The notes: generated from the sequence alone by a model not told the origin. Positions 44,223 through 46,845 are shown, numbered from the stretch's first letter. The stretch: 64,000 bases of DNA from Bacteroidetes bacterium HGW-Bacteroidetes-3 (GCA_002842505.1 PHDE01000001.1:3683-67682), one strand, 5' to 3'. Numbers and translations: made by a program.

Positions 44223-44753
44223 TTATTTCAGCAAAGGACATCCGCAATTCCTGCAAACAATTTCGTCAATATCATGCATAAAACTACAAGCATTACAAAA
44301 AATGATATCATCAACTGTTTTATCATATTTTTCATAAGTTTTTAATTTGCCATGATAACGTACTTTTTCACCTATTTTAAAATAATCATAAAGAGTAGCA
44401 TCATTTTCAGTTCTTATTTCATGTCTTTTATGCTTTTGGTCTTCAAAATAAACAATAAACTCAGTCACCTTTTCCTTTTTTACTATTTCCTTTTCAACAA
44501 CTTCACCATCCCAAGTAGCTTCTTTCTTTACTGAAAATGCTGAATAGACACCAATTAAAAAAAACATCCCACCAATTCCCAAACCTATATGCAATGCCTC
44601 TGGATTGTCCATTTCATCACTCATTTCACCATAAAGATAAAATCCTGCTATTGCAATTATAGCCAAGGCAAAAGCAAATTGAAATCTGTAATCTTTTGTA
44701 TTTTTCAAATAAGTATCAAATGCTGGGTCGTGAATTTTTAAAGAATAGGCCAT
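44223..44753 (-). CDS. Two-TM membrane protein with C-terminal zinc ribbon
   Basis: Two hydrophobic helices; FCNAC...CRNCGCPL. Confidence 0.8.
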   Translation of the reverse strand: MAYSLKIHDPAFDTYLKNTKDYRFQFAFALAIIAIAGFYLYGEMSDEMDNPEALHIGLGIGGMFFLIGVYSAFSVKKEATWDGEVVEKEIVKKEKVTEFIVYFEDQKHKRHEIRTENDATLYDYFKIGEKVRYHGKLKTYEKYDKTVDDIIFCNACSFMHDIDEIVCRNCGCPLLK

Positions 44754-44797
44754 TGTTTAAAGGTTTAAAATATTAAAAAGGTAAAAATTAGCAGAAA

Positions 44798-45664
44798 CTA
44801 ACCTTTCAATTCATTTATAACATGTTTTAAATCTAGTTCTTGTGGTGCCGGAATATTCAATTCTTCAGTATTGGTGAAAGTTCTATCAGTATAATAATAC
44901 TGAATTTGTAATCCATAAAATGGTTCATTAATTACACTAGATTTTTTAATTCCTGAAAGTGGAAAATCCCAATTGTGAAAAAATCCGTTGATATAAGCAA
45001 ACTTTTTCCCTATCAATACATTTCCATCCCCATTTAAATTTTTGTTTTTATAATATATGGGCATTCCAAAAGCAAATAATCCTATAAACCCAATCAACAC
45101 CAACATTACTAAAAACATAACTCCTTTTCCTTCTTCTAGAATAAGTATAAAAAACCCAAAAATAACAACAATCAATATCGTTGTAATCCAAAAAATTCCT
45201 TTGTTTTTAGCTTTTTCATTTTCAAAAAGATAGTTTACATACGTTGATTTATTATTTTCATTCAACTTCCAAGATGCCAAAACATTTTCTCCAGTTATCA
45301 AAGTTTGCAATTTTTTTGCGCGACTTTTGAAGATAAAAGCTACAATAATAGCCGACAGAAACACAAACATCCCAATTAATGCTATAGCCCAAAAACCAGT
45401 TAAGGGGTTATTATTATAAAATGGTAAAACAATAATTATCAATGAAATAAACGCTACTAATAAAGATATATTTACCGTGCTTGATTGATTGTTTTTCAAA
45501 CTAATTGTTTGGTTTATAGTTTCAAAATTAATTGACTTTGATGGTATAAATTCATCAACTATTCCCACAGTTTTTGATTCAATATTTAGAATCTTAATGC
45601 CACATGATTTGCAAAATACTTCTTCAGAAGTTACTGGTTGACCACAATTTGAACAATACTTCAT
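44798..45664 (-). CDS. N-terminal zinc-ribbon membrane protein (4 TM)
   Basis: MKYCSNCG...FCKSCG; two TM hairpins. Confidence 0.82.
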   Translation of the reverse strand: MKYCSNCGQPVTSEEVFCKSCGIKILNIESKTVGIVDEFIPSKSINFETINQTISLKNNQSSTVNISLLVAFISLIIIVLPFYNNNPLTGFWAIALIGMFVFLSAIIVAFIFKSRAKKLQTLITGENVLASWKLNENNKSTYVNYLFENEKAKNKGIFWITTILIVVIFGFFILILEEGKGVMFLVMLVLIGFIGLFAFGMPIYYKNKNLNGDGNVLIGKKFAYINGFFHNWDFPLSGIKKSSVINEPFYGLQIQYYYTDRTFTNTEELNIPAPQELDLKHVINELKG

Positions 45665-45671
45665 AATTTTA

Positions 45672-46226
45672 TTATTTAATTTTTTTGAGATACCAACTGC
45701 TTTTTGTTAAGGTGCTAAAAAATACCAATTTATTCTCTTCTTCATAAAAATGCACTGAAAAATCACTTTCCCCATTTTGTGCCTTCACAATTGCTTGGTA
45801 ATTATTTGACCCAAAGGGCGTTATTTGCACTTCAAACAAACCTTTTTTATCTTTACCGGTAATTATTTCACCTTTCCTTTTTAAAATAATTATGGCATCT
45901 TTATCACCAAGTAAAATAGCTGTAGGATCGTGCCATTTACCTGCCAATTTTGTTAGCTGTTCTGTATTTGAAAATGATTTTTCGGAAGAGTCATAGCTCA
46001 AAAAAAATGATTTACCTATAAAAAACAGCATTGTTAAAACCACTATTCCTATCAAGACTTTAGAAATACGTAAACCCTTATTTGGTTGGTTCAGGCTTTT
46101 TTCAATAAGAATGTCATCATCTATATTATTTTGTATGTTATTATTTTCTACAGAAGCACCACATTCACTACAAAAACGAACTCCTTCATTAATTTCAGTA
46201 CCACAATTTGAACAATATTTTGACAT
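45672..46226 (-). CDS. N-terminal zinc-ribbon single-TM protein with exported C-domain
   Basis: MSKYCSNCG...FCSECG; one TM helix. Confidence 0.82.
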   Translation of the reverse strand: MSKYCSNCGTEINEGVRFCSECGASVENNNIQNNIDDDILIEKSLNQPNKGLRISKVLIGIVVLTMLFFIGKSFFLSYDSSEKSFSNTEQLTKLAGKWHDPTAILLGDKDAIIILKRKGEIITGKDKKGLFEVQITPFGSNNYQAIVKAQNGESDFSVHFYEEENKLVFFSTLTKSSWYLKKIK

Positions 46227-46230
46227 ATTA

Positions 46231-46845
46231 TTATTTCTTATTTCCTTTAAATAACAAAATAAAGTCTGTTATAAATATTCCTATTAAAAGCAAAGTGTTT
46301 ATTCCAAGATACAAGATTCCTTCTGGCAGCACTAAAATCAAATAAGCCATTTGTAATACTAAAATAATCTTAACCAACCAGTTGTATGGATTGGGTTTGG
46401 ATCTTCTTAAAAACACAAACAGCAAAACAACAACTGAAAACAATAATGTTCCTAAAATTGTGTCTATTCTATAACCGTTATACACTAATAATGCGTTGAT
46501 AATCAAATAAATCCAAGTCCAAATAGTTATTCCTCCTGCTTTTGAAATACTATCTATCTGCTTTGACTCTGCTTTTTTTGTGGGTTTAAAAACCTCCGAT
46601 ATACTTTGAGTTTTTTCTGAAACATTTGTTGGTCTTTTTGTGAAGGAATTAAATGCTTCTTTGACCTTGCTTTCAGCAAAATTTCGTCCTTCATTTTTTA
46701 ATGACATCACTGTATTTTTGTACATCTTTTCTTTATACCCCGTAAGATATTTATTCGCAGTTTTAAGAACAATTTTAGTACCGCAAGAAGGACAAAATTT
46801 AGCTTCCACAGGAATATTTGTACCACAATTTGAGCAATAGGACAT
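46231..46845 (-). CDS. N-terminal zinc-ribbon membrane protein (about 4 C-terminal TM)
   Basis: MSYCSNCG...FCPSCG; hydrophobic C-terminus. Confidence 0.82.
   Translation of the reverse strand: MSYCSNCGTNIPVEAKFCPSCGTKIVLKTANKYLTGYKEKMYKNTVMSLKNEGRNFAESKVKEAFNSFTKRPTNVSEKTQSISEVFKPTKKAESKQIDSISKAGGITIWTWIYLIINALLVYNGYRIDTILGTLLFSVVVLLFVFLRRSKPNPYNWLVKIILVLQMAYLILVLPEGILYLGINTLLLIGIFITDFILLFKGNKK

Follow-up and report, generated by a model that had tools for sequence, protein, structure and literature searches.

What holds together a set of membrane proteins whose only common feature is a small zinc ribbon at one end? This question is raised by a locus in a 64-kb stretch of DNA from Bacteroidetes bacterium HGW-Bacteroidetes-3 (PHDE01000001.1:3683-67682; hereafter the window, with coordinates counted from its start), in which the minus strand carries five consecutive open reading frames (ORFs) in the order G, A, C, B, D, all read from this one sequence. 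G encodes a giant protein and A, C, B and D encode ribbon-bearing membrane proteins; the intergenic gaps measure 42, 4, 7 and 44 nt, and no terminator-like sites were found between the five ORFs. A preliminary description of this locus proposed that the ribbon is a tag swapped at the level of DNA, and that it docks all four proteins onto one partner, plausibly the giant. Our analysis upholds the array and its linkage to the giant and supports neither the swappable tag nor the single docking partner. The reading that we prefer, with a probability of about 0.4, is an accessory inner-membrane sensor/effector complex of Bacteroidota in which the ribbons would serve as cytoplasmic protein-protein adaptors.

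The four ORFs following the giant gene carry the ribbon at the N-terminus of A, C and B and at the C-terminus of D. A, C and B open with CSNCG-x9-FCxxCG and D closes with CNAC-x10-CRNC, all four sharing the CxxC-x10-CxxC spacing, with two knuckles about ten residues apart. The ribbons of A and C pass the Pfam gathering cut-off of PF13240 (25 bits) and that of B passes the cut-off of PF13248 (27 bits), B falling just below that of PF13240 (24.1 bits); the ribbon of D has the same cysteine spacing but gave no Pfam match at E <= 1. If overlapping ORFs and those shorter than 60 aa are set aside, no gene of the window but these four has the pattern CxxC-x6-22-CxxC. A simple hydropathy scan gives four, one, four and two transmembrane (TM) helices for A, C, B and D, and BLASTP comparison of the four bodies with the ribbons masked returned no match between them. 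The array was therefore correctly described at the outset, since its ORFs, ribbons, TM counts (that for D being ours) and unrelated bodies are all confirmed. The C-terminus of B is a highly conserved, predicted cytoplasmic domain of ~85 aa (NGFFHNWDFPLSGI...YYYTDRTF.NTEEL.IP).

The consensus of the ribbons (xYCxNCGxxLxxxAKFCPxCG) is the generic one of PF13240 and carries nothing peculiar to one family or genome. They are thus unremarkable PF13240/PF13248 ribbons, and these families are defined by sequence alone and have no assigned function. TM prediction and the positive-inside rule would place them in the cytoplasm. Zinc-binding anti-sigma factors (ZAS) have an HxxxCxxC motif within a helical N-terminal domain of ~80 aa and are encoded next to a sigma factor. 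The motif is absent from the N-termini here, which carry a four-Cys ribbon of ~22 aa, and there was no zf-HC2 match; nor did reading the translations between 43000 and 52600 reveal a sigma-factor-like neighbour, RadC and U being the neighbours scanned with Pfam.

The ribbon-coding DNA does recur as reported, the 18-mer ACCACAATTTGARCAATA being found exactly at 45641, 46200 and 46822 against a chance expectation of 0.04 matches, with three or more copies in 0 of 100 shuffles. It is the reverse complement of TAT TGY TCA AAT TGT GGT, coding Y-C-S-N-C-G. When the starts of the three genes are aligned, identity at the DNA level is limited to the YCSNCG and FC..CG codons and collapses directly outside them. 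The string TGT TCA AAT TGT GG[T/A] is the commonest spelling of CSNCG in ribbon genes of independent low-GC loci, and low-GC ribbons use TGT for 80% of their Cys, TCA for 67% of their Ser and AAT for 83% of their Asn codons. The first Cys is encoded by TGC in the A orthologues of all Lutibacter loci and by TGT in B and C. Ribbon peptides of different families are 49% identical within a genome versus 47% between genomes (orthologous ribbons: 52-58%); as the ribbons of one genome are no more alike than those of different genomes, nothing appears to have been swapped recently. A shared DNA module or gene conversion was rejected on these grounds (six codons only, the commonest codon string, a TGC retained among A orthologues, no excess of identity within genomes), and with it the swappable tag. 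The repeat is accounted for by a conserved peptide and local codon preference.

It is on an evolutionary scale that the ribbon is modular. Orthologues of A and C keep it, as do every full-length D orthologue seen and ~65% of B orthologues; of 86 distinct complete B ORFs, 30 are without a ribbon and start just ahead of the first TM helix. In one locus (L009) the start of B overlaps the stop of A, and there is therefore no space for a ribbon.

Linkage of the ribbon genes to the giant is conserved well beyond the window. A pattern scan with LEWTEWAGDxAF, the most conserved motif of the giant family, recovered relatives of G in 42 loci among 185,579 species (one genome per species). From ORF maps and ribbon-masked searches, the canonical gene string (<U G zA (zC) zB Dz) is found in Lutibacter, Polaribacter, Proteiniphilum, Petrimonas, Fermentimonas, Draconibacterium, Maribellus, Chitinophagaceae, Lacibacter, Saprospiraceae and Algoriphagus, with the order G D A B in Prolixibacteraceae; linkage is conserved across Flavobacteriia, Bacteroidia, Chitinophagia, Saprospiria and Cytophagia. 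Downstream of the 36 distinct complete G genes followed by at least 2.5 kb of sequence, A lies within three genes in 34 cases, B within six genes in 34 and D within six genes in 19. Their co-directional runs contain 0 to 6 ribbon genes (mode 3), a variable number, as had been anticipated, and terminal ribbons are found in 74/230 genes near G versus 0/129 other genes of the same loci (Fisher 3e-17). The functional link between ribbon genes and giant is therefore supported by gene neighbourhood.

The most constant neighbour of the giant is A, whose orthologues trail each copy of duplicated G-A cassettes: in three loci with a tandem duplication (G A D G A B; L014, L015 and L110) each giant has its own A. 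C is occasional (4/42 giant loci, 15 ORFs over all fetched loci), and orthologues of U, the divergent 137-aa gene, immediately precede the giant gene on the other strand in 17/42 loci. The giants closest to G come from Lutibacter metagenome-assembled genomes (76-89% identity). Remote homologues are found in Acidobacteriaceae (26-29% identity), with a ribbon-4TM protein encoded upstream and, in one of two loci, a soluble protein with a C-terminal ribbon downstream, and in Methanospirillum, where a soluble four-ribbon protein and a ribbon-2TM protein are encoded downstream. The bodies of these ribbon neighbours are not homologous to A-D, and the ribbon counts (12/52 near remote giants vs 2/29, p=0.07, the loci not being independent) are only suggestive. 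No relatives were found on IMG/VR viral contigs, and a phage origin was rejected on that account.

What kind of protein is the giant? It begins with a signal peptide (aa 1-26) and a conserved periplasmic head of ~170 aa (aa 27-199), followed by a TM helix (aa 200-222) and a Lys/Glu-rich linker, beyond which lie an Ig-like array, a helical region and a C-terminal module. Acidic residues precede the TM helix and strongly basic ones follow it; by the positive-inside rule the remaining ~1000 aa should therefore be cytoplasmic, on the same side of the membrane as the ribbons. No family in Pfam, NCBIfam, PADLOC or PHROGs matches G, and its 48 homologues among the 8000 top candidates scored are every one named 'hypothetical'. 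The AlphaFold2 (AF2) model of aa 240-1256 (predicted local distance difference test, pLDDT, 81) runs from beta-sandwich domains (253-704) through a helical region (714-1010) and a small alpha/beta unit to a bundle of helices at the end. Its best 50 Foldseek matches in the Protein Data Bank (PDB) are mostly tandem Ig-like/cadherin-type arrays and repeat-rich ciliary central-apparatus chains (E down to 2.5e-11). The helical region holds LEWTEWAGDxAF and Gly/Ala-rich amphipathic helices, and is what the remote bacterial and archaeal homologues retain (query residues ~250-930). A separate model of aa 934-1256 (pLDDT 86, predicted template-modelling score 0.79) found nothing better than E 0.4 when its 323 aa were compared with PDB and BFVD by Foldseek. 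By Foldseek the terminal bundle resembles HEPN-type bundles only weakly (E >= 0.5), and its sequence shows no Rx4-6H motif.

The C-terminal module comes in at least two types on a common N-terminal part. In the type found here (type 1), the only matches at E < 1 of a profile of G to PDB sequences were release factor 1 (RF1) chains, which scored E 0.03-0.09 and aligned with residues ~1012-1117. A 25-sequence alignment of G compared with the RF1 fragment by hhalign gave a probability of 91.5% over 96 columns at 28% identity, with a score of 47.2 against 12.6 +/- 2.3 (maximum 24) for 150 shuffles. The motifs aligned with RF1 domain 3 (FRxxG, N-TD, R-h, G, hExQ, D-SD, YN, G) are collinear, the giant following the RF-1 domain (PF00472) through FRxxG...N.TD..R....G..hE.Q ... 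D.SD..YN..G, and the order of elements in the AF2 model (strand, floppy loop, two strands, helices, two strands) fits that domain. GGQ is not conserved, the aligned position being DGK in the window and GGD, ADA etc. in homologues. True homology of this segment to the RF-1 domain is likely, if unproven; no RF-1 domain protein for profile building was present in the 1.45 Mb of fetched loci. Type-1 modules occur in 219 representative clusters, some at the N-terminus and some with Ank, TPR or Big/CarboxypepD_reg domains.

Giants of four loci (L057, L071, L086 and L119) and proteins P0046-48 carry a type-2 C-terminus, only 13-15% identical to type 1, on N-terminal parts that align over ~930 aa. Its invariant motifs are RPTN...KKxFVKNKTI and TGDIDxFDIRG. 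The best family is PF03497 (anthrax EF/ExoY cyclase), matched by 4/7 members with a best E of 0.0045, and in PDB only one entry is matched specifically, the Vibrio ExoY-like MARTX module 7p1h (E 0.49, on RPxx...KxxFVKxK). A precomputed PF03497 match on P0046 could not be reproduced at E <= 0.01 with the full protein; the similarity comes back, weakly, in the 4/7 type-2 C-terminal fragments. TGDIDxF also resembles the catalytic TADIDMF of CyaA, which we take as a lead only. Between giant and A in divergent sub-lineages lies a further gene, E, coding for soluble proteins of ~300-350 aa with a C-terminal PF13240 ribbon; it follows every type-2 giant, and E-like genes also follow some of the divergent type-1 giants (those of L014, L029 and L125). 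The idea that E is a split-off giant C-terminus was rejected for lack of similarity.

Such a layout recalls polymorphic toxins, with their long conserved N-terminus, alternative C-termini, small downstream genes and patchy distribution. The giant could then be an exported effector with a variable C-terminal toxin (RF-1-like or ExoY-like), and the small proteins its immunity or export accessories. The two or more unrelated C-terminal domains on a conserved ~930 aa, the resemblance of one of them to ExoY/EF toxin cyclases, the recurrence of the type-1 domain at either end of other large proteins (with Ank, TPR or Big), the extra gene E after all type-2 giants, the signal peptide and a distribution that is patchy across phyla and extends to archaea all agree with this. 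We nevertheless consider it unlikely. The stop-transfer TM helix and the basic stretch after it predict that the variable domain stays in the cytoplasm of the producer, and Pfam and NCBIfam reveal no type IX secretion system (T9SS) C-terminal domain, Rhs, type VI secretion marker or other trafficking domain on the giant. A, B and D are orthologues across classes (30-90% identity) that follow giants of both C-terminal types, without the co-variation of immunity genes, and a common zinc-ribbon tag is not known among immunity proteins.

Is the giant, then, what the ribbons bind? A B-centred scan of metagenome contigs (80 loci) found many G-A-B(-D) strings alongside other arrangements: 1) an unrelated giant of ~1176 aa (giant2), then D and B or ribbon-less B (L058, L059, L062, L074, L075, L089 and L095-L100); 2) A, then a ribbon/1-TM protein of 848-1165 aa, then C, then B (L073, L081 and L117); 3) a ribbon protein of 1083 aa, then B (L103); 4) U, B and D only (L055 and L065); 5) B alone (L106 and L113). 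In the cultured Prolixibacter bellariivorans, D belongs to another ribbon-rich operon without G, A or B, which encodes five ribbon proteins besides D (in order: ribbon-2TM, a double-ribbon protein of 836 aa, a fusion of ribbon and AIM24 (PF01987), a 355-aa protein, D and ribbon-4TM); four MacB/FtsX-type permease genes come after it. By this survey G and A therefore form a tight pair, and B and D are a wider core that combines with different large proteins, B being the hub of the neighbourhood. The claim of one common docking partner is not supported, given ribbon-less B beside the giant and B or D with giant2, with large ribbon proteins, with U or alone. What is left intact is that ribbon-tagged membrane proteins with unrelated bodies are repeatedly encoded together. 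Giant2 itself combines an FRNP..MDLDL motif with a hydrophobic, Gly/Ala-rich segment at its centre, and its gene directly precedes the U-giant cluster in Prolixibacteraceae. Its homology to the giant could not be demonstrated (no BLASTP match, hhalign probability 1.4-1.7%, a short FRxP..DxD resemblance only), and it gave no match to the RF1 fragment.

These arrangements are what would be expected if the ribbons, as generic PF13240 modules, bound one another or an unlinked partner (which might be the ribosome, a housekeeping factor, nucleic acid or the surface of the membrane), or worked as zinc or redox switches. B and D would then be the true core, and the giant just one large accessory protein that others can replace. 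The fit of all ribbons to the generic consensus points the same way, as do the numbers of homologue clusters, 236 for B and 447 for D (all 'hypothetical') against 48 for the giant, in whose search only the 8000 top candidates were scored. We hold this explanation to be somewhat unlikely. A is almost never parted from the giant, down to the separate A of each duplicated giant; ribbon neighbours recur at very remote giant homologues; and a universal partner in the cell gives no obvious reason for ribbon genes to cluster. The presence of a ribbon on B and that of D are not significantly correlated (17/16 vs 4/12, p=0.12), and none of the 120 D homologues listed has a Pfam family on its body, one of them carrying PF13240.

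The analysis shows that the genes are linked, that ribbons are enriched, how the giant is laid out in domains and that no DNA was exchanged recently, and it is an adaptor role of the ribbons in one membrane complex that we tentatively prefer. The five co-directional genes and the divergent 137-aa U would form a single accessory inner-membrane system. G would be its single-pass, modular sensor/effector scaffold, with a small periplasmic head and a cytoplasmic body of ~1000 aa made of an Ig-like stalk, a helical hub and an exchangeable output module, which here may be an RF-1-like domain without the catalytic GGQ and in some relatives has the look of an ExoY/EF-type nucleotidyl cyclase. A and B (nearly always present), D (in about half) and C (occasionally) would be small membrane subunits or regulators. 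Their ribbons may be zinc-knuckle adaptors that tie them to a common cytoplasmic surface, be it the giant's body, each other's linkers, or both. There is precedent for this in ZitP and GltJ: the N-terminal cytosolic ribbon of GltJ in Myxococcus binds MglB and its own linker, and that of ZitP in Caulobacter binds PopZ (PMC11135422). As is the case for A, B and C, both proteins have a four-Cys ribbon at the extreme N-terminus, then a flexible linker and one or more membrane spans. Unlike them, A-D have no GYF (GltJ) or DUF3426 (ZitP) domain by Pfam, their bodies are unrelated, and several different ribbon proteins are encoded with a giant.

Several observations weigh against this reading. About 35% of B orthologues have no ribbon and still adjoin the giant, so that the ribbon is dispensable for at least B; the association of B with G is thus independent of B's ribbon, which weakens the giant as docking hub. 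B, D, A and C are all found without the giant, which can therefore be neither the sole nor an obligatory partner of the ribbons. No component belongs to a family of known function in Pfam, NCBIfam, PADLOC or PHROGs, where nothing but the ribbons, and RadC in the gene next door, reaches a curated cut-off (weak similarities below it are those of B to DUF6404 and DUF2207_C and of U to DUF3592, the last at Pfam E 0.06). As for the output module, the giant differs from class I RF-1 proteins not only by its missing GGQ: Pfam RF-1 matches 2/25 members only, at a sub-threshold E >= 0.02, and RF1 is missing from the best 50 Foldseek matches of the C-terminal model. The cyclase similarity of type 2 is likewise below the curated cut-off. 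Finally, the cluster is rare, and the public sequencing runs found to contain the sequence are environmental DNA metagenomes, with no RNA runs among them; full matches are confined to four groundwater runs.

A different role for a membrane complex of this kind is suggested by the PspA-linked ydjFGHL operon of B. subtilis, which encodes several membrane-associated proteins with N- or C-terminal ribbons (two on YdjG, a C-terminal one on YdjL; some PspC proteins have an N-terminal ribbon; PMC11237479). The cluster could by analogy with this phage-shock-protein-linked type be an envelope-stress or membrane-maintenance operon, as it also groups several ribbon membrane proteins in one operon, all its products sit in the membrane, and three of them (the giant, C and U) have predicted periplasmic domains; synteny with a 450-aa gene, mpl/MurC-like by reading of its translation (not by domain search), is also stable in Lutibacter. 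This seems very unlikely. Unlike ydjFGHL and ZnR-PspC operons, the cluster, which belongs to another phylum, has a giant Ig-like/helical protein and no detectable PspA, band-7, TPM or PspC domain; PspA/IM30, band-7, PspC, Toastrack and LiaF stay below threshold in every product (PspA_IM30 in only 3/25 C-terminal fragments, E >= 0.09), and its rare, patchy distribution is unlike that of a core stress system.

A more specific version of the sensor/effector complex can be imagined, which we regard as improbable in its details. A periplasmic signal would be passed through the giant's TM helix to its output module, a nucleotidyl cyclase of ExoY type or an RF-1-like module that, having no GGQ, would plug the ribosomal A site or peptidyl-transferase centre and so arrest translation or sequester it at the membrane. 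The small ribbon-tagged proteins would be the regulators of this defence or stress-triggered growth-arrest device. That the lack of GGQ need not keep a release-factor homologue out of the ribosomal A site is shown by Balon (PMC10901736). Balon belongs to the aeRF1 type, whereas the giant's segment is RF-1-like. PADLOC-DB defence models gave a ribbon-level match of A to PD-T4-6 (E 0.002) and nothing for the other proteins. Such an undescribed membrane sensor-effector would be without a described counterpart.

The features of the locus and of its relatives are collected in Table 1. Among the surroundings of the cluster, the RadC/JAB-domain gene directly downstream of D keeps its position in only one related contig, a Lutibacter-like metagenome contig (L060). 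Further away on the other side lies a gene for a 1326-aa protein with many ~80-aa repeats (FCxxxN.TIADL.A.G..I.WY...), followed by two ORFs. On reading of their translations only, one of these is similar to PorP/SprF-type membrane proteins and the other to the OmpA family, so that the stretch (53053-59921) has the appearance of a locus for surface repeat proteins such as are linked to type IX secretion.

Table 1. Positions of the features discussed, in the window unless a locus number is given
Feature	Position	Strand	Evidence
RadC/JAB-domain gene	43300-43998	minus	PF04002, E 1.7e-41
Gene D, 176 aa: 2 TM helices, small cytoplasmic beta domain, C-terminal ribbon	44223-44753	minus	ORF
Ribbon of D, aa 153-170, CNAC-x10-CRNC	44244-44297	minus	read from sequence
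Gene B, 288 aa: N-terminal ribbon, variable linker, 2 TM, cytoplasmic loop, 2 TM	44798-45664	minus	ORF, Pfam
Ribbon of B, aa 4-21	45602-45655	minus	PF13248, 31.9 bits
18-mer copy in B	45641-45658		exact match
Gene C, 184 aa: N-terminal ribbon, 1 TM helix, predicted periplasmic beta-rich domain of ~110 aa	45672-46226	minus	ORF, Pfam
Ribbon of C, aa 5-22	46161-46214	minus	PF13240, 36.8 bits
18-mer copy in C	46200-46217		exact match
Gene A, 204 aa: N-terminal ribbon, Lys-rich linker of ~80 aa, 4 TM helices	46231-46845	minus	ORF, Pfam
Ribbon of A, aa 4-21, CSNCG-x9-FCPSC	46783-46836	minus	PF13240, 34.6 bits
18-mer copy in A, codons of residues 3-8	46822-46839		exact match
Giant protein G, 1256 aa	46888-50658	minus	ORF call
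G, C-terminal helical bundle, aa 1136-1244	46927-47253	minus	AF2, pLDDT >90
G, RF-1-like subdomain, aa 1012-1117	47308-47625	minus	profile search, hhalign
G, helical region, aa 714-1010	47629-48519	minus	AF2
G, Ig-like array, ~4-5 beta-sandwich domains, aa 253-704	48547-49902	minus	AF2, Foldseek
Gene U, 137 aa, divergent: TM helix, predicted periplasmic domain of ~80 aa, TM helix	50794-51207	plus	
450-aa gene, mpl/MurC-like	51251-52603		read from translation
1326-aa repeat protein	53053-57033	plus	
311-aa ORF, PorP/SprF-like	57070-58005	plus	read from translation
632-aa ORF, OmpA-like	58023-59921	plus	read from translation
Type-2 C-termini (also P0046-P0048)	L057:3139-4128, L071:7465-8454, L086:4914-5903, L119:2982-3971		
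Family E examples	L057:4156-5091, L071:8467-9375, L125:7464-8516, L029:13700-14761		
Giant2 examples	L058:2819-6349, L016:5095-8628, L022:4797-8327, L074:5697-9227, L096:5927-9457		
Soluble 265-aa four-ribbon (CxxC-x10-CxxC) protein after Methanospirillum giant	L039:5775-6572, L040:8856-9653, L041:3779-4576		
P. bellariivorans ribbon-rich operon	L123:5042-11884		

The cluster, conserved in many Bacteroidota, is thus a real, uncharacterised membrane system and no product of recent DNA shuffling; neither for it nor for the giant family did we find a described counterpart in the literature. Few additions to prokaryotic membrane proteins are as common and as little explained as PF13240-type ribbons, of which only a few have a known partner, ZitP and GltJ being the examples. 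With up to six differently bodied ribbon proteins and their large partners encoded in one conserved operon, the question of what these ribbons bind becomes directly testable. This work also defines an unannotated family of giant proteins. Among the modules at their C-terminus there may be a release-factor domain that has lost its catalytic function and, in relatives, a cyclase of toxin type; confirmation of one of these activities would point to a new coupling of the envelope to translation or to nucleotide signalling.

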